A stretch of 64,000 nucleotides of DNA from Chiloscyllium plagiosum (taxonomy: Eukaryota): positions 32,552,585-32,616,584 of the forward strand of contig NC_057730.1 in NCBI RefSeq assembly GCF_004010195.1. The letters run 5' to 3'. Of this stretch, positions 11,018 through 62,157 are shown in pieces. Under the pieces are notes generated by a model that searched no databases, was not told the DNA's origin, and saw only the letters and a list, made by a program, of their open reading frames with translations. Made by a program: the position numbers and the translations under genes. Position 1 is the first letter of the stretch. Each line of letters opens with the position of its first letter.

Positions 11018-12270
11018 GTTGGCTACGTAGAACAGTTGATCTTCCGTAATTACACCGGCACCACTCCCCACCTCTTCCTCCGCGACATTGATGACTGCGT
11101 TGGCACCACCTCGTACTCCCGCGAGGAGGTTGAGCAATTCATCAACTTCACCAACACATTCCACCCTGACCTTAAATTTACCTGGACCATCTCTGACACC
11201 TCCCTCCCCCTCCTGGACCTCTCCATCTCCATCAGTGACGACCGACTTGACACTGACATCTTCTACAAACCCACCGACTCCCACAGCTACCTGGATTACA
11301 CCTCTTCCCACCCTACCTCTTGCAAAAATGCCATCCCATATTCCCAATTCCTCCGCNNNNNNNNNNNNNNNNNNNNNNNNNNNNNNNNNNNNNNNNNNNN
11401 NNNNNNNNNNNNNNNNNNNNNNNNNNNNNNNNNNNNNNNNNNNNNNNNNNNNNNNNNNNNNNNNNNNNNNNNNNNNNNNNNNNNNNNNNNNNNNNNNNNN
11501 NNNNNNNNNNNNNNNNNNNNNNNNNNNNNNNNNNNNNNNNNNNNNNNNNNNNNNNNNNNNNNNNNNNNNNNNNNNNNNNNNNNNNNNNNNNNNNNNNNNN
11601 NNNNNNNNNNNNNNNNNNNNNNNNNNNNNNNNCATACTTTCCAAATTTTAAAGACTTATTTTGTTACGTCTGCCTTTGTTTTTCAACAGGAAAAAGAAAC
11701 CCATCATTTCCTGAAATGTACAACCACCAATCAACCAAACCGCCCGTGGCCCAACATTTCAACTCCTCCTCCCACTCTGCCGAGGATACGGAGGTCCTGG
11801 GCCTCCTTCACGGCCGCTCCCTCACCACCAGACGCCTAGAGGAAGAATGCCTCATCTTCCGCCTCGGAACACTTCAACCCCAGGGCATCAATGTGGACTT
11901 CAACAGTTTCCTCATTTCCCCTTCCCCCACCTCATCCTAATTTCAAACTTCTAGCTCCGCACTGTCCCCTTGACTTGTCCGACCTGCCTAGCTCCTTTTC
12001 CACCTATCCACTCCACCCTCTCCTCCCTGACCTATCACCTTCATCTCCTCCCCCACTCACCTATTGTACTCTATGCTACTTTCTCCCCACCCCCACCCTC
12101 CTTTAGCTTATCTCTCCACGCTTCAGACTCTCTGCCTTTATTCCTGATGAAGGGCTTTTGCCCGAAACGTCGATTTTGCTGCTCGTCGGATGCTGCCTGA
12201 ATTGCTGTGCTCTTCCAGCACCACTGATCCAGAATCTGGTTTCCAGCATCTGCAGTCATTGTTTTTACCT
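11018..12270 (+). mobile_element. Penelope-like element, 5'-truncated (RT C-terminal part, GIY-YIG end, hammerhead-bearing tail)
   Basis: FLRDIDDC RT motif, FYKPTDSHSYLDY, PVAQHFNS...IFRLGTLQPQGIN; flanked by direct repeat CATAGTTT (11010-11017 / 12271-12278). N gap 11357-11631. Confidence 0.88.
12140..12176 (+). ncRNA. Minimal type I hammerhead ribozyme motif (PLE tail)
   Basis: CTGATGA(12144)-A-GGGC TTTT GCCC-GAAA-C-GTC; intact core, stem II hairpin, palindromic ACGT stem III, predicted cut after C12171; stem I is weak. Confidence 0.7.
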
Positions 12271-12306
12271 CATAGTTTTCTTATAATCCAGTTTGGTGAA
12301 ATACAA

Positions 12307-12474
12307 GGCAGAAGTGGGTACTGCAGATACTGGAGATTAGAGTCGAGATTAGAGTGGTGCTGGAAAAGCACAGCAGGTCAGGAACCATCCGAGAAGCAGG
12401 AAAATCGAGGAATGGATTAATTGTTGATGAAGGACTTTTGCCCGAAACGTCGATTTTCCAGCACCACTCTAATC
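12307..12474. mobile_element. 168-bp non-coding PLE-tail insertion with inverted halves
   Basis: Antisense tail then sense tail with TTGATGA...CCCGAAACGTC; flanked by 14-bp direct repeat TTGGTGAAATACAA (12293-12306 / 12475-12488). Confidence 0.75.
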
Positions 12475-12640
12475 TTGGTGAAATACAAACCTATTGGTAT
12501 GACATGTACTTCTGTGTTAGAGACTGTAGGTTTAATCCTAACTATAGGATTGGAACCGATAATCAAGGCTTCCCTCTTGCTGAATTTATGTTAGCCAGTC
12601 TGATATTAAACTTATTTTTTCCTTGATTTTCTATCACTAG

Positions 12641-12740
12641 CGTGCGCAGAAAGCTGAACGGGTGCGAAATCATGTTAAAAGCACCATTACGCACCAGAAT
12701 CAATTGTTGGAAGAGCAGTCCATAACTCAGTTCGAGACTG
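12641..12740 (+). CDS. PALB2: PALB2 exon 3
   Basis: RAQKAERVRNHVKSTITHQNQLLEEQSITQFET; TAG acceptor, GTAGGT donor, phase 0 to 1. Confidence 0.9.
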
Positions 12741-13254
12741 GTAGGTTTTCAGCAAATGATTTAAACTTTAGAATGGATCACTTGACTTCTTCTCAGTCAT
12801 TATGGCCTCAGTTGTAGGGTTTCCAGTGGGAAATGGAATCTGTAAAGTGACAGGTTGGGCTATACTTGCATTCTATACAAGTTAACTTGCTCTCTGCTGT
12901 CACCAAGTGATTTGTAAATAACACTGGTAGGAGTCTTGTCTTGTGAAACAAAGCACCTTAGCATATCACTCAACCACTCCACTTGCATGCTGACTAGCAA
13001 TAGGAGAAGATGTGAACTCGATGGGCTAAACGTCCTCTTGCTGCACTGTAGGGATTCTGTGATTTCTCAAGCCTTTTTGCTTTTTGGTAAATTTAGAAAT
13101 GTTATGTCAGTCTTGTCAAAATATGTTTTGGCAATGCTTGTCTTTGTATTCAGATTGTGTATCTAGCTGCATCCTTCTCTTTTTTCCCCCTCCCACAACA
13201 AAAATAAATTCAGGACCTAATGTATTTCTTTAATCTCTTTTTGTTTTTATGAAG

Positions 13255-15051
13255 GTGAGGCCTCATCATTTTTGGATACAAATCAGTCAAGCTCCTCACA
13301 TCAGAGAAGTCAAGCCCCAGTAGAAGAAAGTAAAGAGAGAAAATCAGCAGTGACCTTTAATCTTGAACCGGAAATCATAGAAGTCATCAATAGCCCAAAT
13401 GTGGCTTTGACAAGTACATTTGAATTTGCTGAACAGCCTTCAGCAGAACCCTTCCCTTCCCCAGTTGTGGAAACGATTCCCATCACAAATATAAACAGTC
13501 AAGTACACAGTCGCCTAAAACTGAAAAAAAAGAGGTCATGTGAAGTACTGAGAAAGGAAGCAGCAAGTGAGCAGAATGAATCTCTGGCTGCTGATGGAAA
13601 ATCCTGTGATAAAGAAATAGAGGAACTGAATTCACCTGTTAACAAAGAGTCTGTAAGATCTTCCATCTTTAACAGAGGCAAAAATGTCTCTAAATCAGTA
13701 TGTGGAGGTGTAAAGGAGAATGTGGAGCATAGAATATTCCTTGGTTCTCCTGAAGGTGAAGAACATTTTGAATTATTAAAAAATGGAGTACAGGAGGTGA
13801 AAGGCAATTGTTTAACCTTACCTGTGAGCAGAACTATGAATGGCTCTGTTTACTGCAGTTCTGGTGATAAGTCTACAGTAGTGTCTACTTGTGAAAATAA
13901 AGCTTTCAGACCTAGGGACTTAAAGGTCCTAACTGAAGATGCCCAACAACAGCAAGCAAAGCAAAACTGCTCTGAGGATCTCACTGAAGCTTTGGAGAGC
14001 AATCTTGCAAATGAGTCAGTAATGTTAGATTCAGATTGTCTGCAGGCAAGTACTGCTGTAGCTGAAGTTTCAGAAGAGACCTCACTGAACTCCTGTACCC
14101 TTGTTGAGGGCCTTCTCTTCCCTGTTGAATACTATGTACGAACAACTCGACGCATGACCAGCTGTCAGCGACAAGTGGATCTGGATGCAGTGATTCACAG
14201 CCACTTGGGAAAGTGCAGAAATGGTGGTAAAGGAAGATATAAGAAATCTACACATGAACAGAGCAATCCTGTAAAAGGCTTCCCCAAGGCTGAGGGAGAG
14301 CTCAACAACACATTATTACTTTTTAACAGTCAGGAGGATGGTATTGCTGGATCTGATGCAGCTTCTTCACAGCAGGACTCAATATACCCCTTGAATATTG
14401 ATATTGATTCTCAGGATATTAAATCAAATCCAGAAAAAAGGAGAAACAGTAGTAGAGAAGAATCTATAAAATCCAAGCTCACAGATACTGAAGTGTTTAA
14501 AGATGAGTTTGTAGCATGGACTTTGAATAAACCCAGAATTCCTGATGTTCAATGTGCTATGTCTTCTAAAGTTCAAAGCAAGAAAGAGAGCAAGGAGAAA
14601 GCAAGTAGTTCTTGTCAACCAGTGTCCGATGCTAATGAATTGTGTGGAAGTGCTGCAAATAAGTTGGATGGTCGTGTTTTTTCAAATATTACTGACTTTA
14701 CTATGAAGAGTGCCAGTCTGTCTCAGAATGATTCTGACCATAATGTGGATTCACTACAGAACTCCGAAAGCCAGACCAGTGATATTTTAGTAGGGCCTTT
14801 CAAAGAGGATTCAATTGATCCATCATCAGAGGACACTGTATTGACTCTGTCAGAGCATCATTTAAACCTAAATAGTGATACTGACAGTCAGGAATTGATC
14901 CCAGAGACTCAGCAAGATTTGTTTTTTAGCACAGCAAGGAAGAAGAGTTTCAGAGGTACAAGGCAGTCTTTTCCATTGGGAATTGATTCAAAGACAGAAG
15001 AATCTTTGTGCCAAGTGTCTCAGCCCAAAAGGAGAGTGAGGCTGTCAAAAG
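13255..15051 (+). CDS. PALB2: PALB2 exon 4 (large exon, contains ChAM motif)
   Basis: 1797-nt open frame with SCTLVEGLLFPVEYYVRTTRRMTSCQRQVDLDAVIHSHL (chromatin association motif); AG/GTAAG, phase 1-1. Confidence 0.95.
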
Positions 15052-15899
15052 GTAAGCTCAAAGTAAACTTGCATTATTGAATTTTAAAATATTTGACTGC
15101 AGGTCTCCTGATTAATTGATATTACAGAGTGGATAATGCTTATTAGCTTTTATTTAGGAGAAGGAAAGAGCTTGCATTTCACGAGCACCTTTTCTACAAT
15201 CTTAGGAGGTCTTTAAGCTTTACAGCCAATAGATGTATTTTGTGACATTTAATACAGTAGTCACTATTGTAACGGTTGGAGATCTTGACCAGAGAAATTG
15301 CAGTGATCTTAAGTTGAGCAGATGGGAGTTGAAAGGGATTATGGCGTAATACAAAGGAGTTAAGCATGTCTATTATAGTTATTAATAAGCCCCTAAATTA
15401 CGAGTGTCTTGTGTGTACAACTTGATCTTTAAATAAAAACATTTTTTGCTTAGCCTTATCTTTAATCAAAAAAATAAAATCATGTGCTGACTTATTAAGA
15501 GCCATGACAGTTTGAAAGGTATATGGTTTTTACAACAGTGGGATGAAAATTTAAGTGATCAGATACCAGAAATATCCGCTGTTCGAAAATAGATAATTTA
15601 AGCACTGACCTCCATATTAGAGAGCAAGCTAATGGTAGAGGGATCCTGGTGTCCTTGTTCTATTTGCATCAAAGATGCCTTGCAAGTAGAATTAAATAAA
15701 AACTTAGGTGGTTAGCTCTGACTTGTATATTCAGACTGCCAATGTAATAATTTACTGAATTTCTATGCTTATGGAAGCCTCAGTGTGGTTAGATTGTGAT
15801 TGTGGGGCAGGCTTGGTGGACCAGTTGGCCTTATCCAGCCTGTCAATTTCCATATGCATTGCAATTGCTAATGTATTATGACTTCTGTGTGCCCAATAG

Positions 15900-16256
15900 G
15901 TAACTCTTATCGCAAAACACGTGCCAGCTCTAGGAAGTTCAACACAGGACTTGACGAAGGAACCCTGACGTGTTCAGAACCATTACTGCCTGTCAAAAAG
16001 CCTATCATCAAAAAGCTTTTTCACAGTCTGGAGGTCCAGGATTTTGACCTCCCTGATGAGGAATATGGTCAACTTAAAGAGAAGTTAAGAGCAGAGACAT
16101 TGAAGAAATCATCTCATCCTTTGCAGTACAATATGGTTAATGGTGCTGTGGGAACACAGGTGAAAACTGAGAATTGGGATATGGGAAAATGTGACAGCCC
16201 ACGTTCCCAGGACATCAGTCAAGCTGTAGAAAAACTTGAAGAACACCTGCTACAAA
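15900..16256 (+). CDS. PALB2: PALB2 exon 5 (MRG15-binding FxLP motif)
   Basis: VQDFDLPDEEYGQLK matches human DFQLPDEDFGPLK; acceptor AATAG, donor GTAAGA, phase 1-1. Confidence 0.88.
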
Positions 16257-16629
16257 GTAAGATGGCCCAGTCATTCCCACAAACAAGAGATCTCAGTATT
16301 CTTTAAAATACATCAGTTATGTTTTTTGTTAAATGCCCAATATTTATTCTCTCTGTTAAATTACTTTTTGTTATTAACTAATATATATTGACAGAGTTAG
16401 AAGTAATATTTCATAATGCAGATTTCTCTCCTTACTGTTAGTGCTATTTATAAATCACACCATTCTTGTACAAATCTTTATGTATGTATTAACTACAAAG
16501 TGTGTGCATATTGTGTGATAGTGGTAAAGATATTCTGTGTCAATGTGCAGGCTCAGCCACAGTTCTCCAATAACTGAGGATATGAGTGATCGCGACAGAC
16601 TGCAGGAAATTCCTTAAGATTAAACTCTT

Positions 16630-17910
16630 GGCATCTGACTTGAATGAAAGTAAATTTGAAATTTGGATAGGCTGGCCACCAATATCCACTACAAACCAAC
16701 TGACTCCCACAGTTACCTTGACTATACATCCTCGCGTCCTACTTCCTGTAAAGACTCTATTCCATTCTCCCATCTATTCTGATTATACCAATTTTGACAA
16801 GGGAGCCTCTGAAATGTCCACCTTCTTTCTCAACTGAGGATTTCTCAGCACCATAGTTGATGGCACTCAGCTGGGTCCAACCCATCTGCTGCACTTCACC
16901 CCTCAGCCCCTATCTTCCCTCCCATAACTACAATAGGGTCCACCTTGCCCTCACCCACCATTGCACCAGCATCCACATCCAGAGGATTATTGGCTGCCAT
17001 TTCCACCACAATGCCATGACATACACCACCACCACCAACAACCCACCCCCAGCCTTCTGCAAGGACCATTCCTTCTGGGACACCCTGGACCACTCCTCGT
17101 TCACCTCCCTCTACCACTCCCCCACACAGCCCCATGACAGCTTCACCTGTAACCACAGAAGGTGTAACATCTGCTTGTTTACTTCCTCTCTCCTCAGTAT
17201 CCAAGGGCTCAAATACACCTTCCAAGTGAAGTAGCACTTTCCCTGAACTTCAATCAATCTAGTCTACCATGCTCACCATGTGGTCTCCTGTATATTGGGG
17301 AAATGACGTATATACTGAGTGACTGCTTTGCAGAACATCTACATTCTGTCCACAAAAAAGACCCCGAGCTTCCAGTTGCCTCCCACTTCAACAAACTACC
17401 TTGTCCCTGGCCAACATCTCTGTCTCAGGCTTGCAGCCGTGCTCCAGTGAAGCTCAGCACGAACTGGAATATCAGCACATCATTTTCTGTTTGGGAACCC
17501 TACAGCTCTCTTGACTCGATGTTGAGTTCAACACTTGTAGGACTTGAGTCTCCTTCTCTCATGTCCTTACCCTGACCTCCACATACCAGGCCTTGTTATC
17601 ATGTTGTCTGCTATTACACACTACCCATTTTTAGCCACTATTGGTCCTCATTAGTAAGTATTCATTCTCCTAGGCTGATAGTTATCCACATCTTTGACAG
17701 TCCAACTGTTCTTCCGTCTTTGGGCTCTAAGTCTACCTATCATTTACTCCTTATCTTTCCTGTGCCCCCCCCACAACTTCTGCATTGAGCCAACTTTTTC
17801 CAAGCTACCAACATTGCTGAGAAAGGATCACTGGACTTGAAAAGTTAAGTCTGATTTCTGTCCACAGATGCTGATGACTTGATAAGCTTTTCCAGCAGTT
17901 TCAGTTTTTC
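16630..17910 (+). mobile_element. Degenerate Penelope-like element
   Basis: YKPTDSHSYLDY-like segment, YIGE (GIY-YIG) at ~17290, FAEHLHSV..PVASHFN; decayed hammerhead-like tail at ~17815-17850. Confidence 0.8.
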
Positions 17911-18081
17911 TTTTTTAAGTCTGTTTTGTCAGCTGTCAATGAACATTTAAATCAATGTTTAAATCAAGTAATTTCTCAGTCACTGATTATCATTACTTTT
18001 TCTCATTGCTCCATAATGCAGCATTACATTCAGTATGTTCTGCGTGTGTGTTTATACTCAAGATAAATGATAAATTTATTG

Positions 18082-18274
18082 ATGTGGAAATGCTGGTGTT
18101 GGGCCACGGTGGACAAAGTCGGAAATCACAGCACAACAGATTAAAATCACAAGCTTTCAAAGTGCTGCTCCTTTGTCAGGTGGATGGACCTTCCACCTGA
18201 TGAAGGAGCAACGCTCCAAAAGCTTGTGATTTTAAATAAACCTGTTGAACTATAACCTGGTGTCATGTGACTTC
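18082..18274. mobile_element. Palindromic PLE-tail mini-element with two decayed hammerhead motifs
   Basis: Inverted arms centred ~18188; CTGATGA at 18197 (GAAA mutated to AAAA); direct repeat TAAATTTATTG at 18071-18081 / 18275-18285. Confidence 0.75.
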
Positions 18275-18442
18275 TAAATTTATTGTTGTAATAAACCATT
18301 AAGTAGTAAGTATGATTCTCCTATTTTTGGTTGTTGCCATATATGTGTGTCATTTGATATCTGATACAGAAATATATCACTGTTTCTTCACTGACATTGG
18401 GCAAAATTTTGGAACTCTCTCCCCCCACTACTGTTGAGAGTA

Positions 18443-18663
18443 CAGAGGTCCCCCTGTACCCATGGGGGATACTTTTCCCAACCTGCCGTGGAACCCGAAG
18501 CCGCGGATAGGAGCGAACCCATTCATTTCAATGGGAAATCTACCTTCCCGGCAGCCTCCTTTTCCTTGGTTCCAGAAGGTTCCCTGTAGTATGTTCGGCC
18601 CGCAGGAAACTGCGGGTAACTGAAACTGCGGAAAACGATTCCGCAGATACGGGGGTTGCCCTG
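18443..18663. mobile_element. pogo/Tigger-like MITE
   Basis: TA-CAG...CTG-TA termini; imperfect TIRs CAGAGGTCCCCCTGTACCC vs revcomp CAGGGCAACCCCCGTATCT; CpG-rich interior. Confidence 0.75.
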
Positions 18664-18868
18664 TATCTTCATCTCAGTGGCTGTAGGAGGTCAGGAAAAT
18701 GCCTTATCACATCTTAGAGCATCTGAGGATAGACAATAAATGTTGACCTGGGGGACTTTAAATCTTGAACCTCCATTCTGCAAAATGGATCCTTGCTTCT
18801 GACACTCATGTTCTATAATGAATTTTTAGATAATATATACTAGTCATCCATTTTAAAACTAAATTTGA

Positions 18869-19135
18869 GGGTGGCATGCACAGCGCCAGGGACCTGGGTT
18901 CGATTCCTGTCTCGGGCGACTGTGGGGAGTTTGCACATTCTTCCCGTGTCTGCGTGGCTTTCCTCCGGGTTCTCTGATTTCCTCCCACAATCCAAAGATG
19001 TGAAGGTCAGGTGAATTGGCCATAGTGTTAGGTGCATCAGTCAGAGGTAAATAGGGTAGTGGAAAGGGTCTGTTTGGGTTACTCTTCGGAGGGTCGGTGT
19101 GGACTTGTTGTTTCTATACTGTAGAGAATCTAATC
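18869..19135 (+). mobile_element. HE1-type tRNA-derived SINE
   Basis: B box GGGTTCGATTCC, TGTGGGGAGTTTGCACATTCT core, CR1-like tail ending AATCTAATC; same family as 58200-58475. Confidence 0.85.
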
Positions 19136-19195
19136 ATCATAAGTTGATGCTGATCTTGTGCTGAACTTACTAATTTATGCATGTTTTTCACCTAG

Positions 19196-19692
19196 AGAAT
19201 TTTGACTGTAAGGAACTGAACAGGACTCCAGAAAAACCAGCATTAAATGATGTCGTTTGTCCTTATGGTCAGAAAACTCCAAAACCTACACCTAACCATA
19301 AATTATCTTCCAGTGTTCTGTTGTCAACACCTTCCTGTACTCCACAGTCAGGGCGGGTCCACCAGTGTGAACAAGGTGCAATTAGCCCTGTTTTTCCTTC
19401 GCTTGGTTTCACTCCTGCATTTAGTTCTCCAAGCCTTTCTCAAATCAGCTGTGGAAACCAGAACTCATCCCAAATTGGCACACTACCACATACATGTAAA
19501 GATGTTAAGAATAATAGCAACTGTGATGAAGACTTACAAACATCTGGTGAAGGAGAGGTGCCATTAACAAATGGAAAAGGCACTCCATCTGCAAGGGAAT
19601 ATTTAGAAAAGGAAGAACAACCTGCAGAGTGCTGCCATGTCAATCAGTCAGAGATGGTAAATGAGGATAATGCTGTGGAATTTATTGAAGAG
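19196..19692 (+). CDS. PALB2: PALB2 exon 6 (equivalent to the second half of human exon 5)
   Basis: Open frame with SPVFPSLGFTPAF (human SPAFPILGTTPAF-like); CCTAG acceptor phase 1, GTATGT donor phase 0; keeps the frame. Confidence 0.85.
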
Positions 19693-20307
19693 GTATGTTT
19701 TCTTTTAGTCTGCTGCTTAGTGTTATGGTGAGATCGTTGCCGTTAAGTGTTGTAGTGTAGCATACTGACTCTCTCATCTTGAGTGTTGTTGATAAGGCAA
19801 AACTGCAGAGGTAAAAAAACTATCTGACAAGGGCTAGATCAACTGTTGGACCACTCTACTGAGTCACCCTGCTACAATTTGCCTCCCCTCTGGTGAAAGG
19901 TGTGTGCTAGAGATGTAGAATTGAACGAATACCAGAGTACTTTTTCTTTTGTTTGGTACCTCAGATCTGTTCCTACTGCCGAGGACAGCAATTTCTACTA
20001 GTCATTCTGTGTTACCCACCCTCAACAAAAAAAAATGTGATTATTATTATGTTAAATCTTTTACTTTTATCAATAGTTTCCTAGCCCCCTTCAATGTTAT
20101 CCCAAATGGTTTGGGCCGGATACGGCATTAACAAAAAAAATGCAGTAACTTGGCAACTTTTACTTTACATTTACTTTTGAAATAGAGATGAGAGACTGCT
20201 GACTCACCTAAAGTCTGACAATTCTATACTATTGAATAGATTGTGTATAACAATTCTTTAATGGTGAAAGAGTTTTTTAACTAAATTTTGTGGGATTTTT
20301 TTAATAG

Positions 20308-20397
20308 GAGAATAATGATGCATTGACTCCTCCTCTTGGCAACCAGTTACAGCAAAAGCCAGAGAGGCAAACATTGCACCTAATTTCCAAGATACAG
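20308..20397 (+). CDS. PALB2: PALB2 exon 7 (start of WD40 domain)
   Basis: ...QTLHLISKIQ resembles human NLQLVSELK; TTAATAG / GTTAGT, 90 nt, phase 0-0. Confidence 0.8.
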
Positions 20398-21215
20398 GTT
20401 AGTAAACAGTAGCCAATGTCAGATTATAAATGATAATGTTTTCTTTACAAAGTGACTGAGATACCTATGAAACAACCTGATTTATAAACCCATTCAGAAT
20501 ATTGATCAGTTATATACCTGGATCTAGGAATGATGCCAGGAATTGCAGAAGTATTATGGTGCAGGAGGCCATTTGGTCCATTGTCTACACTGGCTCTTCA
20601 AATAAATATCATTACCTACTGCCAGTGATCCCAGTGCGTTTACATCCCTCCTGTAATGTGGCGCTCAGAACTGCACACAGTACTCCGGCTGAGATGTACC
20701 AGTTGTCTTTTAAAAGTTCAAAATCACTTCCTTTGTCTTGTACTCCATGCCCCTATTAATAAAACCCAGGATACTGTTTACTTAATTGCTCTTTCAGCCT
20801 GTTCTGCCACCTTCAGTGATCTGTACACATATACACCAAAGTTCCTTTACTCCTGCACCCCTTTTAGAATTGTAACCCCTATTTTATCTTCGAATGTTCT
20901 TCTTATCAAAATGAATCACTTTACACTTCTCCACAATGAACCCCATTCGCCACCAATCTGCCCACTCTACAAACTTGTCTACATCCTAGACAGTCCTACA
21001 CTGTCCTTCTCGTAGTTTACTGTACTTCCATGTTTCTCTATTTTGTTGAACAAAGTCCGAGGAAGTATCCATTGTAACAGGAGGAGGAACAATTGTTTTC
21101 TTTTTAAATAAGAAATGTGAACATTTGGTCCTTCAAAAAGGCAAATTTATACCTCCTTTAAGCAAGACCTAATGTAGATACAGAGGAACCTTGATTATCC
21201 AAATGACATGGGCGG

Positions 21216-21894
21216 TGTTATGAAAATGTGGATGTACTATACCTTTAAGAGAGTAAAAGCTAGCAATGACAGCACCAATGGGTTCTCAATAAAATACAAT
21301 GTAACATGTGCTCCAGCTACTGGGGTAGCTAGTTGCCTAGAAACAACAAAACAATTTGAATTTGACCAATCAGTTTAAATTATACCCCAAAAAACATACC
21401 GAATTCCAATCACGTTTGAATTGAGTATATTGACAATCTTAAAAGCCAATGACACAAACCGATACTTTGGGATATAAGAACGGGGAAAATTGAACAGCTG
21501 GGAGGAGAACTGCCACCAGAACTACAACTGTAGTCTGCTAGTCAGAACTCTGAGAGGTACCTGTCTAGAGAAGGAGTTTAGAGAAACCTCAACACTGACC
21601 TGGAGAGACAACCTACCGACGAAGATAAAGAGATTTAGCTGCTGGCTGGTTTTAAAATTTGAATTTTCCAGTAAATCCTAACTGGGAATTTTATCGGATT
21701 AGTATCATAGAAGGGATGGTAAAGAAAGGTTAGAGAAAGGAGGTGTAAAGAGTCGTGATTAATTATTCTCTGTTATACTTTAAGAAATAAAGTTGTTAAT
21801 TTTTACTTGAAAATTTGTAGATTACTGCACGGGATTAATCCTTTATGTGTTGCTGGTTTAAATTAAGCAGGCGGGTTTACCCCATGTCGTAATA
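21216..21894 (+). repeat. 5' LTR
   Basis: Starts TGTTATGA, ends GTCGTAATA; direct repeat of 26684-27379; followed by a degenerate PBS-like TGGGGTTCGGGTCC. Confidence 0.9.
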
Positions 21895-24800
21895 GATTTG
21901 GGGTTCGGGTCCTTGATTTGAACTGGTTTAGACAAATTTTAATAGATTTGGGGTTTGAAAAATCCTAGCAGATTTAACCACTTGCAGGTTAGTGTCCAAG
22001 ATCTTTAAACAAAATGTAGGTGAAGCAATTTGTTTAATTTCAGTGACTTGTGGCTGATTAGATTAAAAGTGAGAGAAGTGGCTCTTAAAATTGCTAAAGA
22101 GGTTCTGGGATTTGAAGATTATTCTCAAATTTGCCAAGAAAGTTTAGAAGGAAACAAAAAGGCCATACCTTTAGAATTAGCAAATAAGTTAGATTCTGGT
22201 TTAACCAAAGCTGAAATTGTGAGTGAGTTACACAAACACTTAGGTGTGTCAGAGAAACAGACAAGTGCAGTAGAGGTAGAAAAACTTAAATTACAATTGA
22301 GAAAAATGGAGTTAAAGATAAACAGAGAAAGAGAAAGTTTTTGGCTGAGCAAGAGGCAGAGAAGAAAGGGAAAGTGAAAGAGAACTTGAACTTGAGAGGT
22401 TTTAACTTAGTCAGCAAAGTCAAGTTAACAGGATGAAAATTAAACGAGAAGGTAGTGATATATATAAATATGTCAAAACGCTGCCACATTTTGATGAGAA
22501 ATATGTTGAAGCATTCTTTATTTCATTTGAAAAATTGGCTAGGCAGATGGAGTGGTCTGAGGATTTATGGGTAATGCTAGTTCAGACTAAACTGGTAGGC
22601 AGAACTAGTGAGGTATTTGCTGCACTGTCAGCTGAGGGGTCAAGACATTATGAAGAGGTTAAACAGACTATCTTAAGTGCTTATGAATTGTTACCAGAAG
22701 CATATAGACAGCGGTTCAGAAACCCAAAGAAGGAACCGGGTCAGACTTATGTTGAGTTTGAAAGAATTAAACCTAGTCATTTTGATCTATGGGTGCATGC
22801 TTTGAAAATAGATATGACATCTGAGGCTCTAAGAGAGATTATTTTGCTGGAGGAGTTTAAACACTCACTTCCAGAGATTGGAAAAATTCATGTGGAGCAA
22901 TAGAAAGTTCAGGAAGTGAGAAGGGCAACAGAATTGCAGATGAGTGCAGGTTGGTGCATAAGATAGCTTCCAGCCAGAATTTTGTCCTGTGAGGGATAGA
23001 AGTTGGGAGAAAGGGAGATCCTACACTACGAAACCAAGAGTAGAGAGCACTGGTAAGAATTTACCACAGGATAAAAAAGAAGCCCAAGAGAGTAGAAAGG
23101 AGGTGAAAGACCTCAGGTATTTCCACTGTAGTAAAGTGGGACACGTAAAGTCACAGTGCTGGTCGTTAAAGAAAGGCACTGTGGGAAAAGATGAGGTAAA
23201 AAAAGCGAAGCCAGTGGCATTAGTGAAGGTAGTAAAGGAAACTGCAAGAAGAGCCTATGAGCTGCAGGAGTGTGCACAGCCTAGGCAGGGGCTGGGTATG
23301 GAGTTAGTACCTGATCTTTACAAAGAATTTGCCACTGTGGGTAAAGTTTACTCAAAGAACAGGGGGAGAAGAACAAGAAGGTATAATTTTGAGATATACA
23401 GCATCTAAACAGTCGCTGAGAGTAAGAGATGAGTGAATATGCAGTCTTTCTGATCTGTTACCCAAGAGTGTGGTAATATGTGGGATAGATGGACAGAAAT
23501 TTAGCGTTCCCTTATGTAACATCAGTTTGGTGTGCCAACTCAAGGCTGTGGAAGTAGCAGTGGGAGTAATTGACAGAGTGTCAGTTCCAAGAATTCAGTT
23601 TATTCTTGGGAATGATTTGGCCGGATCCAAGGTGGGAGCGAAGCCCAAGGAAGACCAAAAAACTGAGGAGTTAAAACAGAAATATCCTGGTATTTTCCCA
23701 GACTGTGTAGTAACCAGATCCCAATATCATAAGTGACAACACAATGCAAAAAGTAAAGAGAAAGATAAAGGAGTTGAGGTTCAGTTAGCGGATAGCCTAT
23801 TTGACATAATAGTGCAGGAAAAACCTGAACAGGCAGAGGGTCAGACAGAAGTGTTTAGTCCTGGAAGGCTAAGAGACAGCAAGACAAGATGATAAAAGAT
23901 ATATATGTGAATGCGTACTCCGAAAAGGAGGCAGAGAATATTCCGAAGGGTTATTACTTGAAAGATAGAATCCTAAGGCAGAAATGGCAGGTTAGTACAG
24001 AGAAGAAATGGGCCGAAGTGCACCGAATTGTATCGTTGGTAGCATACAGACAGGAGGTGTTACGGGTAGCACATGAGCTATCTGTCGGAGGTCACCTAGG
24101 GGTACGAAAGACTCAAGCTAAGGTACAGAAACATTTTTATTGGCCTGGAATGCACAAGGATGTAATTAAGTTTTGAAGTAAGTGTCATACATGCCAAATG
24201 GTAGGTAAGCCACAGGCGGTAATAAAACCAGTACCTTTGTTGCCAATTCCCGCATTTTAAGAACCTTTCACGTGGGTTATAATTGACTGTGTAGGTCCCC
24301 TCCCGAGAACTAAAAGTGGGAACCAGTATTTGTTAACCATAATAGATGTGTCTACCAGATGTCCGGAGGCAATTCCACTTTGGAGTATCAAGGCAAAAAA
24401 GGTGGTAGAGGAGTTAGTAGCTTTCTTCACATGGTATGGGTTACCCAGAGAGATTCAGTCGGACCAAGGGTCAAATTTTACTGCTAGGCTGTTTCAGGAG
24501 GTTATGGATAGGTTAGGTATACAGCACTTTAAATCCAGTGCTTATCATCCTGAATCCCAGCGAGCTTTAGAAAGGTGGCGTCAGACCTTGAAGACCATGT
24601 TGAGAGCATACTGTCAGGATTTCCCAAATGATTGGGATAAAGGTGTCCCATTTGTATTGTTTTCCATTAGACATGCCCCAAATGAATCTACTCAGTATAC
24701 TCCTTTTGAGTTAATATTCGTGCATGAAGTGAGAGGCCCTTTGAAATTAAAGAAAAATTGACAAGACGAAAGTCTGAGATCTCACACTTAGATAATGTAT

Positions 24801-27379: not shown

Positions 27380-27716
27380 GGCAGGGAATATTTTGTGTAG
27401 ATAATCAAATGCCAGATAATATAGTTTAGCCAAGCATCGTCACCTTGCGCTCTTGTTCGGATAATCCGAAATTTGGATAGTCGAATACCGGATAATCGAG
27501 GTTCCTCTGTGTAGAGGCTCGTTTGAAGAATGTGCACATCTGTCAGTGACCTCTATGATTTCACAATATGCGCAGGTTGGAAGAGGCTCATTATTGAGAA
27601 AATTTGTCCTGTGGAGCAGCCTTGATTGCTCTTGTGAAGTAGAGTTGCTCTTCAATAGCAATAGTTCTTTGTACTCATATTTGGAGTTTAAATAATTTTC
27701 TCACTTGTCTTTATAG

Positions 27717-28850: not shown

Positions 28851-28936
28851 GTTCCTATAATTGAACTCATCCCCATTCCAGATGCTGTGAACATCCTGTG
28901 TGTGGCCTTTGGAAATCTGGAGATAAGAGAAGTCAA
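28851..28936 (+). CDS. PALB2: PALB2 exon 9 (WD40)
   Basis: VPIIELIPIPDAVNILCVAFGNLEIREV; 86 nt. Confidence 0.95.
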
Positions 28937-47585: not shown

Positions 47586-49104
47586 TCTCCCATCTTCTTA
47601 CCCCAACCCTGTCAAACTAGACCGTGTCATCACTTGGACTGCTACCACAAACAATCCATTGTCAGCCACTAATAGTTCCCATTAGCGGCTGTTGATTCTC
47701 TCAGGATGACCTTTACCCATTCCTTTGTCTTGAGTCGAAAAGTGTGACACTGGAAAAGGCACAGCAGGTCAGGCAGCATCCGAGGAACAGGAGAACATAA
47801 GCTCTTCATCAGGAATTTGGAGGAGGGAAGGGGGCTGACAGATACATAGAGATGTGGGGCTGGGAGTGGAAGGTAGGTGGGATGCTGATAGGTGGGTGCA
47901 GGTGGGAAGTGATTTGTGATCGGTCGGTGGGGAGGAAGATGGGCAATCTGCTTAACTGGTTTTCCCTGCATTTGGGCTCGATCTCGACCTATCGTTTACT
48001 CTTCTTCCCCCAACCCCAGTCCCCCACCAGCTTATAGGCCAACCTTCTTCCAAATGCATTAAATTCCAAAGAAAGGTCACTGGACCTGAAATATTCAGTC
48101 TGCTTTCTCTCCTTAGAAGCTACCAGGTTTGCTAAATTTTTCCTGCAATTTCAGATTTCCAGCTTCTGCAGTTATTTGGGTTTTTTTTGTTATCCCTCAT
48201 CAATTGCTTAAGCTGTGGCTCTCGCCCAATAAATCGGTAACATTATAAGTGTCCATTTGCCATGTTCCTCCTGCAAAAAGGGGAAGTTACATGGAGGAGA
48301 AAGCTGGAGGAGCAGCAGTCCTGGTAATCTAAGGGCCATGTTAGCGGTGCCAGCAAGGTAGACAGCATCTGGCTCCTGGGCCCATCCACTCCAGATCAGC
48401 TGTTTCCTCCCTTCTTTCCTTCCTCTCTTTGGCATATTTCTTTATCTTCTTCGTCCTGTCAGCAGTGGAGAAGGTGACATTATGGAGGAGGGTGGCTGGA
48501 GCACCACTCTCGGTGAGGTGGCAGCCTGTCCTGGCAGCGGAGCCATGTTTGTAGTATTCCCAGAGCAGTGGACTCCAGCTGTTGTCAAGGCGATGGCAGC
48601 TACAGACCCAGGGGCTCCTGGTTGCGGGGCAAGTGTGGGTCCAGCACGAGATCAAGCATTGGTGGCCTTTTGGCGATGTGGGCTCAGCGACGAAGAGATG
48701 GTGCCTTGAGTGGCAACGCTGCCATTGGTGGGTCCAATGAAGGCAGTGGAGGGGTGGCAGCTCAGGTGTCGTATGTCAGCTAGCTCAGGACTCATGCCAC
48801 AGGTGGCAAAGCGGAGATAGACTCTGCTATATCTTTTTATTCTTAAACTATTCAAAATAGTGCCAGATTGTGGCGACAATTGAAGTTTAGCATTGTATTT
48901 TACTGTGTTGTTCATTGTAGGCTACAAGTGACAGTAAATCATCATTCATTCATTCATTCATTTCTGAAGGATTATCTCAGAAAATCCTGTGGTCAGGGCC
49001 CACTAAATTGTTTTCTCAGACTTTTCCTCTGCCCATAACAGCTTTTTTTTTTATCTGTAAATTGTGTTGGGGAAGTTGTATAAGGAAGTTAGAGTTTGAA
49101 CTAG

Positions 49105-52170: not shown

Positions 52171-52284
<114 letters not shown>

Positions 52285-54336: not shown

Positions 54337-54725
54337 TCCATGCAAGATTCTGTAAATCTGTTTTTTAAATTAGAATCAGTCTGACAGTCTCGCAAAGGGC
54401 ACCTCACACTTTCAGTGCATTATCCGGACCAACGTGACACCAATTGTTAAAATTCACTTGAGAATGTAACTTTTTTTAAAAAGTTGTGTGATTTACATAA
54501 GAAAGAACTGAAACCAACACGTTCATTTTAAAAGATGAGAGACTTAACAAACAATCCAGGTCTTTTTCAATATATAATTTCAGTTACATCACACTGTAAA
54601 CTTTTGTTATAAATTCTGTGTCTTATGATCTTCTACTCCGCACCACCTGAAGAAGGAGCAGCATTCCGAAAGCTAGTGCTTCCAGATAAACCTGTTGGAC
54701 TATAACCTTATGGTGTGTGATTTTT
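54337..54725 (+). mobile_element. PLE tail fragment with hammerhead
   Basis: Same tail as 58060-58730; approximate 12-bp flanking repeat AGCTTTGGGTAA / AGCTCTAGGTAA. Confidence 0.75.
54644..54678 (+). ncRNA. Minimal hammerhead ribozyme motif
   Basis: CAC-CTGAAGA-A-GGAG CAGCA TTCC-GAAA-GC-TA-GTG; core intact. Confidence 0.7.
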
Positions 54726-56559
54726 AGCTCTAGGTAAAGTTCCTTCTGAATCCCTTGTTGGATTTCTTGGTGACAGCCTTATAGTGATGGTTTCTGGTCA
54801 TGCCCTTCCCATTTCTACATAATCTCCAACCAATCTATCATTGTTTTAAAGACCCATATTAAATTTGCCTTTGGCCTTTTCTCAAGACAGAGACCAGGCT
54901 GTCAATTCTTTCCTGATGTACAATCCCCATGTTTTTGGTATAACTCTTGTAAATCTCTGCAAACTCCTAGAGCCTCTTAATTCTGTTGTGTTTTATTTTG
55001 TACCTTTTTCAAATTCCTCTTCTTTTGTGTGATATGGAGATCAGAACTAGGTTCCGTTCCGAGTTTGGCTTTGGGACATTAAAGATCTGGTGTCCCTAGT
55101 CCAGCCTCCCTTAACTATGATTTGGAGGTGCTGGTGTTGGACGAGGGTGTACAACGTTAAAAATCACACAACTCCAGGTTATTGTCCAACAGGTTTACAG
55201 TATTAGGAAGCACTAGCTTTCGGAGCTCCTTCATCTAGTGGTTGTGAAGTATAAGATCGTAAGACAGAATTTACAGTGTGATGTAACTGAAATGATATAT
55301 TGAAAAAGACCTGAATTGTTTAAGTCTCTCATCTTTTTAGAATGAACGTGTCAGTTTCAGTTTTTTCATACGTAAATCCCAGAACATTTAAGATGTGAGC
55401 TGCCCTGTGTGAGACTGTCTGTGCCCCAATGTTCAGACTGATTCTAATTTAAAAAATGGATTTACAGAATCTTGCATGGATTCATGCAGTTCTTTGAGCA
55501 AAGTAAAATGTAATTCTGCAAGTACAAATTCAGCCCACAAACTTGTGTATGTGTGCATGTGGGTGAGTGTCTGTGAGTGTGTGTGTGAGAGTGTAAAGGG
55601 GTACAAGTCTTTGAGAGAGTGTATGTGTGAGGGAGGGTCTACATGAGTAAGTGAGGACTGCAGATGCTGGAGATCAGAACTGCTGTGCTTTTCCAGCAAC
55701 ACATTTTCAGGGTCTACGTGAGTGAATGGGTCTGTAGGAGTGTGTGTGTGTGTGTGTATAGTGCAATGGGGTCACCTGTAGTGACATGAACCCAAGGTCC
55801 CAGTTGAGGTCATCCCTATGGGTACCAAACTTAGCTATCAGCCTCTGCTCGGCCACTTTTCGTTGTTGCCTGTCCTGAAGTCCGCCTTAGAGGACAGTCA
55901 CCCGTAGGTCCAAGGTCAAATGTCCTGGACTGCTGAAGTGTTCTCCAACTGGGAGGGAACACTCCTGTCTGTTGATGTTGTAAGGTATCCGTTCATCCGT
56001 TGGCGTAGCCTCTGCTCGGTCTCTCCAATGTACCATGCCTTGGCATCCTCGTCTGCAGCGTATGAGACAACATTGGCTGAGTTGCGCGAGTACCTGTCAT
56101 GTGCATGGTGGGAGATGTCCGTACGCATAATGGTGGTATGCATGTTGATACTGATATCTTGCAGCATCCACCATGATGTCAGTTTTGTTTGCTAATGCTA
56201 ATGTATGGTGTTAGCCTGAAAGCTGGGCAGTTTGCTACGAGCAATGATCTGTTTGAGGTTTGCTGGTTGGTTAAAGGTGAGAAGTGGAGGTGTAGGGAAG
56301 GTCTTGGCAAGGTGCTCACCCTCATTGATAATGTGTTGCAGGCTGCGAAGAACGTGGCATAGTTTTTTGGCTCCTGAGAACTACTGGACAATGAAGGGTA
56401 CCCTGTCAGTTGCAGCTTGTGTCTGTCTCCTGAGGAGGTCATTATGGTTTCTCGCTGTGGCACGTTGAAACTGGCGGTCAATGAGCATCGTACCCAGTTC
56501 TTGATGAGAGCATCCTTGAGTACTTCCAGGTGTCCGTCACGTTCCTCCTCATCTGAAGT

Positions 56560-57570: not shown

Positions 57571-58199
57571 GTTTAGAATAGATCCTGTGTATGCATAGGA
57601 CTTGTCCATAGGGGATGGCTGTTTTAATATGGTTCAAGTGGAAGCTGTAGAAGTGTAGCATCGTGGGGTTATCCGTGGGATTGTGGCAACAATGCAAAAT
57701 GGCAAAGTAGAGGCTGATAGCCAAGTTCGGTACCCATGGGGATGGCCTCAACTGGGACCTTGGGTTCATGTCACACTACAGGTGACCCCATTGCACTATA
57801 CACACACACACACAGATGGACACAGACACGTGGACACTCCTACAAACATGCACACTCTCCTACTGATCCATACATTCATGCAGTCTCTCATGCTCACATG
57901 TGCACCACTCACAGATTTATACCCTTTTACACACACACATACACACTCTCTCACAGACACTCCTAAATCCTGCCCCTGCCCCCAACCCACCCACCCACAC
58001 AAGTTTTGTGGGCTGAATTTGTACTTGCAGAATTACATTTTACATAGCTCAAAAACTGCATGAATCCATGTAAGATTCTGTAAATCCATTTTGTAGATTA
58101 AAATCAGGCTGACCATTATGGCACAGACAGTCTGACACAGGGCACCTCACATCTTCAAAGCATTATCTGGGCCGACATGACACCAATTGTTAAAGTTTT

Positions 58200-58475
58200 G
58201 GGTGGCACAGTGGCTCAGTGGTTAGCACTACTGCCTCACAGCACTAGGGACCCGGGTTCGATTCCAGCCTCTGGCGACTGTCTGCGTGGAGTTTGCACAT
58301 TCTCCCTGTGTCTGTGTGGGTGCAGGTCAGGTGAATTGGCTATGCTAAATTGCCCATAGTGTTAGGTGTATTAGTAGGGAGTTGGGGAATGGGTCTACGT
58401 GGGTTACTCTGCGGAGGGTCGGTGTGGACTTGTTGGTCCGAAGAGCCTGTTTCTGCACTCTTAGGGAATCTAATC
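58200..58475 (+). mobile_element. HE1-type tRNA-derived SINE
   Basis: A box TGGCTCAGTGG, B box GGTTCGATTCC, tail ending GGGAATCTAATCT. Confidence 0.88.
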
Positions 58476-58652
58476 TTGAGAATGTAACTTTTAAATGTTC
58501 TGCAATTTACATGAAAGAACTGAAAACAACATGTTCATTCTAAAAGATGAGAGACTTAACAAACAATCCAGGTCTTTTTCAATATATAATTTCAGTTACA
58601 TCACGCTAAGAATTTATAGCAAAAGTTGTCTTATGATCTTTTACTCCACAAC

Positions 58653-58687
58653 CACCTGATGAAGGAGCAGCGTTCTGAAAGCTAGTG
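58653..58687 (+). ncRNA. Minimal hammerhead ribozyme motif
   Basis: CAC-CTGATGA-A-GGAGC AGC GTTCT-GAAA-GC-TA-GTG; stem II retained through G-U wobbles. Confidence 0.65.
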
Positions 58688-59319
58688 CTTCCAAATAAAC
58701 CTGTTGGACTATAACCTGGTGTTGTGATTTTTTTTTTCCGCCCTTAACTGCTCAGTATAGATGTTTGAAAGTGATCTTTGGAGAATACCAATAGCACAAT
58801 CAATCTCAGGAAGAGCAAGCAAAATGAGCTAGAAATACAGCTGTAACTTGTAATCAGGAATGGTTTATGCTGTGAGCTTAATTAGAAAGTGATGTGCAGC
58901 CGACGTGCGCCTGTCCGCAGAGGGCAGTGAGTCGGACTTTTATCTTGAGTTCAGTATGAGGCGTGCCTTCGAGTTCCTGAAAAACTTGGAGGGCGCTTGA
59001 GGAAAGGAAATGTCTCCGAATTCCTTTTCGCCGCCTTATGGCGTATTTTCGAATAAATATACAGCACTTCACGGCACGCTAAATCCCTCGAATAGGCAAT
59101 CAATTATCCGTATATGTTCCTTTTTAAATAAAACCTATAGTGGGACCAACTGGACAGCTTTCAGTTAGTACAGGGACGATAAGCCCAACCTTTAAGGATG
59201 TTTCCTCTAGACTTGTTTTTTTTCTCTCGCCTCCCACCTCTATCTCTGCCAGCACACTGTCTTTTCCTGCTCTCGTTTCCTTCCCCTCTTGGTCTGCGTT
59301 CTCTTTCTTGTGCAGTTTT

Positions 59320-59579: not shown

Positions 59580-59631
59580 ATGTTGGCCCGGGCGGTCTGG
59601 CTGCTGCTGATGCTGCTTCTCACCAGCTCAG
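59580..59631 (+). CDS. Exon 1 (signal peptide) of a secreted or membrane CUB-domain protein
   Basis: MLARAVWLLLMLLLTSS(G), CAG|GTAACC phase-1 donor compatible with the exon at 63209. Confidence 0.8.
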
Positions 59632-59964
59632 GTAACCCCAGCACTCACTCGCTCCGACACCGTTATACAGCCGTTGATTTAGGAAAAAGGGAAGTCTGCT
59701 TTATATCGCATTAGTTTGCAATGTATTTATTGTATCAAATTCTATTCTGCTACATTGCAGTGTATTGCAATTCATGCATTTTGCGTTTGTGGGTGGGAGG
59801 AGGGGGATCGTATTAACCCTACAAATCATAGTACTTAGAAATTGCTGGTCCCCTGTGTTGTGTGAGAGGGAGGAGAGTTCTAACACTAACTGTAACAGGG
59901 CTTTCTAACACTGACCACGTGTGTAACGGGGTTTTCTGCCTTGACCTGTGTGTAATAGGACAAT

Positions 59965-61355
59965 TGTACTGCCGAATACGGACGACACAATCCTGTCTAA
60001 GGTCATCGCCAACCTGGTCAGGTCTGATCTGGGATCGGTGAGTCACCCTGATCAAACTTGTCCTATACCAGGCGGGATGATGTCTGAGAACCTCATGGAT
60101 ACAATTGCCTTGGTGCATGACGGGGTTAAGGGGGGCAGCCTTGGACAGGATATAGCACATTTACCAGTGGGACTAACTGTCCAAAATTGGCTCTGAGGAG
60201 AGAATCCGACTGCTCTACAGTAACACACATACAGGAGTTCTGATGAAGGGTCACCAGACCCGAAAGTTAATTCTGATTTCTCTTTACAGATGCTGCCAGA
60301 TCTGCTGAGCTTTTCCAGCAGCTCCTGTTTTTGTTTCTTATTTATAGCACGCGGGGTTCTTTTGGTTTTTGGTTGCTCTACGCCAACATTGTTAGTGCAG
60401 TCTCAATCTATGGCTGGGAATCAGAAAGTCTCCTGATCACTCCTGACTCAGGGAGGGCTGCCCATTCTCTCCTGCCTTATTTTTGTGTTGTACAGAGCTT
60501 TTTGCTGAGTCCATCAGGAAGGATGCGAGCCTGAAAGGGATGATTATTCCAGGCAGCGGAGGCCTGTTGGTCAAAGCCTCCCTGTACGTGGATAATGTCA
60601 CTGCTTTCTGCTCGGATCTGCTGTCAGTGCACAGACTTGTGAGCATCTATGATCAGTTTGAACTGGCTTGGGAGCCAAGGTAAATTGAAGCCATATTGTT
60701 TGGGAACTGAGCTGACTGAGCCTTTATCCCCTTCACCGTCGGGGCAGATTACCTGGGAATATGGTTCAGAGGGACTGGGGTATGACTGAAAATCTTGGGA
60801 GGAGTGTATCACCAAGGTGAGAAGCGGCTGGGGGTGGAGGGCGGGGAGACTGTCACACATCTCCTCCTGGAATGTGCCTTTGCTAAGGAAGTCTGGAGAG
60901 AGATGCAGTGGATTTTGTCAAGCAGCTCTGTAACACAGGATACTGTGCTGTACGGTCTGTTGCCCAAGATGCACACTGACACAAACATTGACTGTGCTTG
61001 GAGAACCATCAACTTAGTGAAAAATGCTCTTTGGTCTGCCCGAAACTTGTTGGTCTTCCAGAACAGGAATTGACCCTGACCAAATGTTGCAGACTGGCAC
61101 GTTCTAAGGTATAGGACTATGTGCTGTGAGATGCATTAAAGTGTGGGGGCAGCTGCTGCCAAGGTTCAGTGGGGAAAGCCCACTGTCTGAGGTCTTTTTG
61201 CTGAAGTTAAATGGCACTTCAGTTATTGGACCTTCCCAGTGCCTCACATGCAGGTAAATGTAGTCTGGTTCAAGTAAGGGATGTCTTTGGTTTGTGTGGA
61301 TAGAGTCAAACTCCAATGTTTGTTTGTTTCCTTGATATGCTACCGTACGGAACGG
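59965..61355 (+). mobile_element. Tx1/L1-clade LINE, internally deleted
   Basis: ILSKVIANL...HPDQTC.IPG, ASLYVDNV (YADD-like), ETVTHLLLECAFAKEVW (C-terminal zinc finger). Confidence 0.75.
60219..60373 (+). mobile_element. 155-bp hammerhead-bearing PLE tail insertion
   Basis: AGTT-CTGATGA-A-GGGTC ACCA GACCC-GAAA-GTT-AATT at 60236-60272; direct repeat TGCTCTAC at 60211-60218 / 60374-60381. Confidence 0.75.
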
Positions 61356-61775
61356 AACTGTTTGTGACTGTGTCTGAAGAAGTGTGCATAACAGGGCCCT
61401 CAGCCTGGAACTCTGTGCTCGCAGTGGGGCCTTCTGTCTAGCGGTGTGTATGTAATGGATTTCTATCTTGCACTGACTATTATTAACAGGCCTGACTGTC
61501 ATGCACTGATTATGTCTACATAACAGGGTTAACTGTTGAGCACTGACTGTGTATGTGACAGGTCTGAATATTCCAGCTCTTTCTGTCCTGACACAGATTA
61601 AATTGTGGGTATGTTTAGTACAAGATAGAGAATGTATATAAAAGGTGATAACAGGTCTTAGTGGAGTATTTCATAGATGAGTAGGAGAGTTGTCTTTTAT
61701 GTCCTGGGTTGATATATTTAATCTTTGAGCAATGTCACTAAAACGGATCATCTGACCATTATCAAATTGTTCTTG

Positions 61776-62157
61776 ATTTGGAGATGCCAGTATTGGACTG
61801 GGGTGTACAAAATTAAAAATCACACAACACCAGGTTATAGTCCAACAGGTTTAATTAGAAGCACACTAGCTTTCAGAGCATCGCTCCTTCATCAGGTGGT
61901 AGTGGAGGGCTCAATCCTAACACACAGAATTTAAAGCAAAAATTTACAGTGTGATGTAACTGAAAAATTGATTGTTAAGCCTTTCATCTGTTAGAATATA
62001 ATGACAGTTTCACTTATTTCATGTGTAAATCACAAAAACTTTTTTAAAAAAAGTTGCATTCTCAGGTTAGCTGTTAACAATGGTGGTAGCTAGACAATGT
62101 GTTGAAGGTTTTAGCCCCCTGTGTTCTCTGTCTATGCCATGATGTTTAGATTAATTT
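61776..62157 (-). mobile_element. PLE tail insertion
   Basis: Same tail family as 44884-45089; 14-bp direct repeat TCAAATTGTTCTTG at 61762-61775 / 62158-62171. Confidence 0.8.
61864..61898 (-). ncRNA. Minimal hammerhead ribozyme motif (minus strand)
   Basis: Reverse complement CAC-CTGATGA-A-GGAGC GAT GCTCT-GAAA-GC-TA-GTG. Confidence 0.68.

Follow-up and report, generated by a model that had tools for sequence, protein, structure and literature searches.

The window described here is a 64,000-nucleotide stretch of the genome of the shark Chiloscyllium plagiosum (contig NC_057730.1, positions 32,552,585 to 32,616,584; coordinates below are those of the window), which carries hammerhead ribozyme motifs within remnants of Penelope-like elements (PLEs). 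The minimal hammerhead motifs in the window are real, and by structure they are PLE minimal type I hammerheads whose cleavage is predicted from the sequence. The repeats that bear them are the pseudo-long terminal repeat (pLTR) or tail ends of PLEs, which belong to three Neptune-type families (A, B and C, two of them related) and one Poseidon-type family (D), with the stem II types GGGC/GCCC, GGAGC/GCUCC, GGGUC/GACCC and GUC/GAC, respectively. Here we report the 5' junctions of these copies. We consider it probable that the minimal type I hammerheads lie in PLE terminal repeats and that most Neptune-type stubs were copied from sense RNA that was likely capped and had not been cut.

Insertion junctions

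Most Neptune-type copies are stubs of 95-135 nt, with 148 of 181 family A copies being short. Relative to core nucleotide C3, 62 of the 181 family A 5' ends lie at -9 to 0 with a peak at -4/-3, while 11 lie at +25 to +31, at the predicted cut site, and 24 are spread over the 168 bases from -197 to -30. For family B (n=54), 22 ends lie at -10 to 0, piling up around -8, and 1 lies at +26 to +32. Depth in an independent run (X15) rose about six-fold at 12138-12165, and 371 contigs left the stretch just before 12140. The A at 12140 is the dominant 5' end of family A and likely its transcription start; the position of the pile-up matches CA/TA, which we take to be an initiator-like consensus. At the cut-site boundary 305 matches were found, versus 198 at +31 and 52 at +26, and about 61 of the 100 cut-site matches listed are deletions, fold-backs or insertions. 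We considered whether 5' ends accumulate at the cut site and so record cleavage in vivo, and rejected this, there being no peak there; a splice acceptor as the cause of the 5' boundary was also rejected, since the upstream flanks are heterogeneous.

The junctions also carry an extra G. One family A subfamily has 8,358 genome copies with a non-element base directly before A(-4), and among the 100 matches listed, tallied by hand, this base is G in 67, A in 24 and T in 9, the genome containing 21% G. At control positions (100 listed matches each) G was found 22 times at +1 and 18 times at -6 (Fisher p ~2e-10 against 67). Without the family A matches explained by an inverted arm, G stands in about 43 of 65. 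Family B gave 2,216 matches with G in 74 of the 100 listed; many of these are templated by the arm, and the proportion is about 39 of 51 otherwise. The 55 family A loci examined at -4 included 24 with an inverted partner, 12 without duplication and 18 distinct solo copies with a duplication. Of these solo junctions, 8 are flush with a G of the target (often GAT), 5 have a G that is untemplated, 1 has a G from an element duplication and 4 have none. A flush join at G was seen in 1 of 11 control solo copies, against 8 of 10 flush junctions at -4.

In full-length L1/SVA insertions an extra 5'-junction G has been attributed to copying of the cap (PMC3287187), and an extra G is found likewise at the shark PLE stub junctions. 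No report of a cap-like 5' G in PLEs was found in the literature searched. Since the whole hammerhead is still present in the template, the template RNA was uncut, and we consider sense, capped, uncleaved RNA the likely template.

Two other kinds of junction were recorded. A recurrent family A class lacks the hammerhead interior, the GA of CUGA being joined to the GA past the cut site (about 24 of 100 listed matches), which is likely a microhomology jump mirroring stem I. At the -6 control, about 45 of 100 listed matches show a near-perfect palindromic junction in which two copies, both starting at -4, are separated by one base, readable as the cap G of one copy or the templated C of the other.

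Several observations weigh against a capped, uncut template or reduce what the junctions can say about it. Among Poseidon-type D/E copies, 22 of 25 extend farther upstream and show no such pile-up. The junctions were tallied by hand on the first 100 matches listed, and about a quarter of the matches with G are explicable by the inverted arm; of the 13 solo junctions with G, 8 have that G in the target as well, so these are read as cap-guided microhomology. The family B junctions were mostly chosen for their G, and a target duplication was seen in 3 of 15. In an RNA run (X20; 1,459 reads) both strands were about equally represented and depth was flat across the cut, with no pile-up of molecule starts or ends, so that no transcript 5' end was seen; this run neither shows nor excludes element transcripts. 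Genomic copies record successful templates only, and other molecules may have been cleaved. Finally, no hammerhead fold is obtained for the monomers (z -0.2 to -1.2), and the computed energy of the double hammerhead is -13.3 kcal/mol versus -24.6 kcal/mol for the best dimer fold; these weak predicted monomer and dimer folds agree with the low activity reported for the minimal-hammerhead class.

Proposed mechanism

In the proposed explanation, RNA polymerase II would start at the edge of stem I. The element protein would nick the target and its reverse transcriptase (RT) would start at an internal tail site, as it does in vitro for the Anolis Poseidon element PAc. From a tail lying near the RNA 5' end, the RT would run off at the cap after 95-135 nt, and the extra cDNA C copied from the cap G would either pair with a target G or stay untemplated. 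If both target nicks were primed, the two cDNAs could join by microhomology, giving head-to-head pairs. A cut 32-37 nt behind the cap would decap the element RNA, and a cut in read-through RNA would detach the downstream tail start sites, so that cleaved RNA would rarely be a template. A protein-assisted decapping off-switch would fit both the position of the ribozyme and the PAc data. That the ribozyme is such a slow, protein-assisted off-switch is the weakest step, and we put it forward tentatively, as a weak commitment.

Motif census in the window

A sequence-only reading of the window had listed about 15 motifs as fitting the minimal hammerhead. Each of the 14 coordinates given is a copy of the repeat family named for it, but only 6 are intact by a family-blind descriptor (intact CUGANGA and GAAA, stem II of at least 3 bp, loopless palindromic stem III, UH, and stem I of at least 2 bp): 12144, 41539, 44974, 54647, 58656 and 61895(-). 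The same window subjected to 100 dinucleotide shuffles gave 0 descriptor matches. Two sites presented as intact were not: 12424 carries C3>U together with a mismatch in stem II, and 60240 lacks C15.2 (GAAA-GUU), which breaks the palindrome, while intact family C members read GAAACGUU and have 427 exact copies in the genome. The copy at 44974 has one stem II mismatch with 3 bp remaining, and the core is gone at 48066 and 17817. Either CUA or CUU had been assigned to the GGAGC type; all four intact copies end in CUA, and CUU occurs in the window only among decayed copies. Five extra copies were found, namely 12306-12408(-, coreless), 18184(-), 44967(-), 46942(-) and 47812(-, with a 13-nt deletion), four of which are inverted partners. 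The GGGC (A) and GGGUC (C) types have a common downstream tail, so the four stem II types, though distinct, do not represent four independent lineages. An Rfam scan of the window returned no hammerhead family at E<=10. The description of a dense population of ribozyme motifs needs qualification, as most copies are decayed or truncated and about half of the short ones face an antisense partner in a long hairpin. The features are as follows.

10617..37877, +: coding exons of the host gene PALB2
11015..11937, +: PLE remnant of family A (Neptune-type) with RT palm/thumb, an assembly gap and the C-terminal end of the endonuclease, from open reading frames (ORFs) and the gap-free relative L179
12140..12176, +: intact family A hammerhead found with the descriptor, in a PALB2 intron; C3 at 12144, GGGC/GCCC as stem II, an ACGU palindrome and a cut predicted after C 12171
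12172..12271, +: tail of family A, whose two preferred 3' ends lie about 35 nt from each other
12293..12488, both strands: head-to-head family A unit of a coreless minus copy (12306-12408) and a decayed plus copy (12417-12457, C3>U), with a 14-bp direct repeat on either side
16672..17917, +: remnant of family C (Neptune-type); both its GIY-YIG and its hammerhead, at 17817, are decayed
18071..18281, both strands: two decayed family B stubs head to head, with their cores near 18184(-) and 18197(+)
35615..36522, +: family B copy, long and decayed, whose hammerhead at 36416 carries U4>A
40722..41608, +: remnant of family D (Poseidon-type) whose intact hammerhead has C3 at 41539, GUC/GAC as stem II and its predicted cut after 41570; A9, the extra U and G10.1 are overlapped by the AUG at 41545-41547
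44883..45091, both strands: head-to-head family B pair, the minus copy starting at U4 (44966) and the plus copy 9 nt before C3 (44974); the plus copy has an intact core, an AGCU palindrome and a predicted cut after A 45002
46865..47585, both strands: two longer, decayed copies of family B head to head, 46942(-) and 47540(+)
47753..47906, -: family A copy with a 13-nt deletion spanning stem II and GAAACGUC
48064..48158, +: family C copy, heavily decayed
54347..54729, +: family B copy, core intact at 54647
55098..55962, -: family B copy, the inverted partner of the copy at 58656; its hammerhead near 55237 is decayed, as is the GIY-YIG upstream
57685..58732, +: family B copy, core intact at 58656
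60236..60345, +: family C stub, hammerhead at 60240 without C15.2
61771..62080, -: family B copy, core intact at 61895

Genome-wide abundance and ribozyme structure

Exact-pattern searches of the 3.556-Gb genome gave 87,506 matches for family A, 16,627 for B, 427 for C and 11,944 for D (116,504 in total), whereas the reversed control patterns gave 0 matches each. A sample of 120 10-kb stretches, placed at round coordinates along contigs C1-C40 and comprising 1,163,427 called bases, contained 128 relaxed matches, 85 of them with a loopless palindrome; five shuffles of the sample gave 7-13 and 0-2, respectively. Intact motifs are thus found once per 13.7 kb (85 in 1.163 Mb), which extrapolates to about 250,000 (200,000-310,000) intact-looking motifs genome-wide. 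Tail anchors identified 260 copies in about 1.09 Mb, or one per 4.2 kb, corresponding to about 820,000 remnants. The very large genome-wide load anticipated in the sequence-only reading is therefore confirmed by both the exact matches and the sampling; its rate of one motif per 4-5 kb is right for remnants but too high for intact motifs. A second Poseidon-like family that is not in the window has a stem II of 6-7 bp (GUUACC type), and smaller stem II types in the sample were GAGUC/GACUC and GGGU/ACCC; these observations come from loci L041, L050, L055, L080, L096 and L099. PLE expansion in whale shark introns has been reported earlier.

Among the 85 motifs, the extra base that separates position 9 from position 10.1 is A in 70, U in 13 and absent in 2, and the 10.1-11.1 pair is G-C in 68, G-U in 15 and A-U in 2, giving G10.1 in 83; neither feature was demanded by the scan. 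Stem III, whose sequence the relaxed scan likewise left free, is ACGU in 62 and AGCU in 23 of the 128 relaxed matches, and 25 more are CpG-decay forms. The assignment to PLE minimal type I hammerheads made beforehand agrees with the core, the extra base, the G10.1-C11.1 pair and the palindromic stem III. The core is fixed while stem II is of at least seven types, C-G is swapped to G-C at 15.2-16.2 and stem I pairs vary (2-4 bp), so that stems I, II and III covary between families around a constant core, as had also been proposed. In 100 family A copies that cover the motif, subfamily variation within the core is confined to the free N7, and loop II varies too. A core that stays constant across varied stems points to selection in active lineages. 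After insertion, core and stem columns decay alike (3-11%, CpG 12-23%), so that single copies look neutral, and the dispersed copies are likely inert passengers. The expected excess of core over stem conservation accordingly holds across families and is absent from individual copies.

Element assignment

The RT fragment at 11015 gave 49,774 first-look candidate matches in the genome. An RT motif was present in 27 of 30 fetched loci, and in 16 of these 27 a family A hammerhead lies about 1.0-1.1 kb downstream. The gap-free family A locus L179 contains RT, a C-x4-C-xx-C linker, GIY-YIG and then the hammerhead, so the CX2-5CxxC linker and C-terminal GIY-YIG of the Neptune type follow the RT in this family; a decayed linker and YIG motif were recognized by eye in family C (16.9-17.5 kb) and family B (55.7-56.2 kb). 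Family D has GIY-YIG without the linker (L223), and an AUG at the start of stem II opens a frame of at least 25 codons in 6 of 6 loci. A Pfam search with 12 fragments returned no PLE domain and two sub-threshold matches.

In every family tested, two 3' ends lie about 35 nt from each other, which is the PLE tail. An inverted partner lies within 300 nt of 75 of 148 short family A copies and 24 of 41 short family B copies, and insertion units are flanked by target duplications of about 9-16 bp. The marks of endonuclease-positive (EN+) PLEs, namely a 30-40 bp tail, an inverted partner and a target duplication, are hence all present. Twelve long-open-frame candidates for full-length elements proved to be assembly gaps (runs of N); no full pLTR-ORF-pLTR element was recovered from the gapped assembly, in which only decayed tail-to-ORF junctions were seen. 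The first AUG after the cut site was rejected as the start of the family A ORF, being in frame in one subfamily and out of frame in another. Tandem units in the style of non-LTR retrozymes were not found in the window, where copies are dispersed or inverted, and no genome-wide tandem search was made. The long family A tail (12255-12271 and other loci) ends in a pyrimidine run plus AG, resembling a splice acceptor, and the long family B tail ends at AUG. The head-to-head hairpins have computed energies of -138 (44883-45091), -85 (18071-18281) and -346 kcal/mol (46865-47585).

Alternative explanations

In the model of Cervera and de la Pena the ribozyme cuts tandem precursors into unit-length or circular RNAs, which would be the main templates, with the stubs being ordinary 5' truncations or derived from circles. 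Conservation of the core over at least seven stem II types, with N7 alone free, agrees with this in that cleavage is likely selected in active lineages, and with a circular template, too, the cDNA would regain the complete motif. However, an abrupt stop 4-8 nt upstream of the core together with an extra G is expected neither from random truncation nor from a circle, and a linear template that had been cleaved should give a stop at the cut site, where none is seen. We give this account of the main templates little credence, although circle processing of other RNA molecules may take place. It is similarly improbable that the 5' boundary reflects an endonuclease nick or a structure-induced template switch, with the G being untemplated or favoured by the target. 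ATT is the sequence preferred by the Anolis enzyme (PMC11167929) and is also the family A boundary, and many junction Gs match the target; yet the family B boundary lacks ATT and has the same G, control boundaries carry 18-25% G, a terminal G is found in 1 of 11 control target duplications, and the stop lies beyond every hammerhead helix.

The stubs might instead be a self-propagating non-autonomous family, resembling short interspersed nuclear elements (SINEs) or retrozymes, with an internal promoter and re-copied from stubs. Stubs outnumber long copies about 4 to 1 (148 of 181), one small subfamily has long copies in 0 of 4, and such propagation is compatible with the cap signature, but the main subfamilies each include long copies (13 of 49 and 9 of 24) and the stubs are dispersed, not tandem, in the window; we regard this explanation as rather unlikely. 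A host role, in which the dispersed motifs are intronic ribozymes shaping shark pre-mRNA processing, is very hard to credit. The roughly 250,000 intact-looking motifs in the genome and the motif-containing reads found in a poly(A) run speak for it, and against them stand the decay of the core like stem positions (CpG loss 12-23%), the flat RNA depth across the cut site, the distance of about 28 kb per strand between potential dimer partners and the pairing of many copies with an antisense arm. Copying of stubs from capped, uncut sense RNA remains the explanation we prefer.

Comparison with known elements

Minimal hammerheads in PLE pLTRs, abundant as solo copies, are known from Cervera and de la Pena 2014 (PMC4209133); the kind of motif has thus been known since 2014, and what is added here is the copy number and the 5'-junction evidence. 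The motifs of metazoan PLEs described there have in common with those of the shark the core, the extra base before stem II, the G10.1-C11.1 pair and the palindromic 15.2-16.2, as well as mostly solo copies, opposite-strand pairs and several families per genome, while shark stems I and II are shorter than those of Schistosoma. The available part of that paper includes no shark and no 5'-end analysis, whereas 5' ends are examined here. Its largest counts are 9,000 in X. tropicalis and 4,000 in coelacanth; with at least 116,504 exact matches against the maximum of 9,000, the shark copy number is more than 10-fold above the published counts found, with the reservation that the descriptors differ.

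For PAc, Frangieh 2024 (PMC11167929) describes an internal RT start, priming of both strands and cleavage that is protein-assisted and dispensable. Two RT start sites defining the tail are common to PAc and the shark elements, as is, probably, an uncleaved RNA substrate, and family D has the AUG at the start of stem II as PAc does, whereas in the Neptune-type families the ORF starts downstream of the hammerhead. The PAc results were obtained in vitro on the Poseidon clade; ours are genomic junctions of Neptune-type families. The shark families share with the EN+ PLE architecture (Arkhipova 2013, PMC3846280; Craig 2021, PMC8557442) the pLTR, the inverted 5'-truncated partner, the 30-40 bp tail, the target duplication and the Neptune linker. 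Arkhipova 2013 (PMC3846280) preferred an antisense template with self-priming while leaving room for a sense one; it is to a sense template that the cap-like G found here points. Non-LTR retrozymes (Li et al. bioRxiv 10.64898/2026.07.22.740005) are PLE-derived, non-coding, carry a type I hammerhead and, in the available text, include one chondrichthyan, but they form tandem arrays, while the shark copies are dispersed solo or inverted stubs.

Host gene and other elements

Over the part that was searched, a PALB2 protein labelled Chiloscyllium plagiosum is identical to the large exon at 13.2-15.1 kb. The mapped PALB2 introns hold 5 of the 14 sites and 1 of the 6 intact motifs, the other nine sites lying beyond the last PALB2 exon; the placing of much of the motif load inside host introns is overstated for the window. 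A decayed Gypsy-like LTR retroelement lies in a PALB2 intron at 21282-27380, with broken gag- and integrase-like frames (labelled by eye) and direct repeats about 5.47 kb apart of 83-87% identity. CR1/L2-like fragments of long interspersed nuclear elements occur at 407-2415 and 31198-31605 (endonuclease and RT pieces, by eye). A family A-like GIY-YIG remnant at 2533-2965(-) has no hammerhead detected downstream, and a weak CUB-domain match at 63175-63597(+) (E 0.022) is perhaps an exon of another gene.

Implications

The junctions provide a base-exact candidate start site and indicate that template ends in Neptune families are not set by cleavage; they bear on the choice between sense and antisense templates (PMC3846280) and on the role of the hammerhead (PMC8557442, PMC11167929). 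Head-to-head hairpins at such density would be a large source of double-stranded RNA, comparable to inverted Alus in primates. Taken in its widest form, the explanation would be that Neptune transcription starts at the first base of stem I, so that the hammerhead is the capped leader; that caps copied in tens of thousands of insertions show PLEs to copy sense, capped, uncut RNA in vivo; and that the hammerhead is a self-decapping off-switch and not a template maker, in a genome with the largest load of self-cleaving ribozymes that we found reported. We hold this full statement to be possible though doubtful as a whole.

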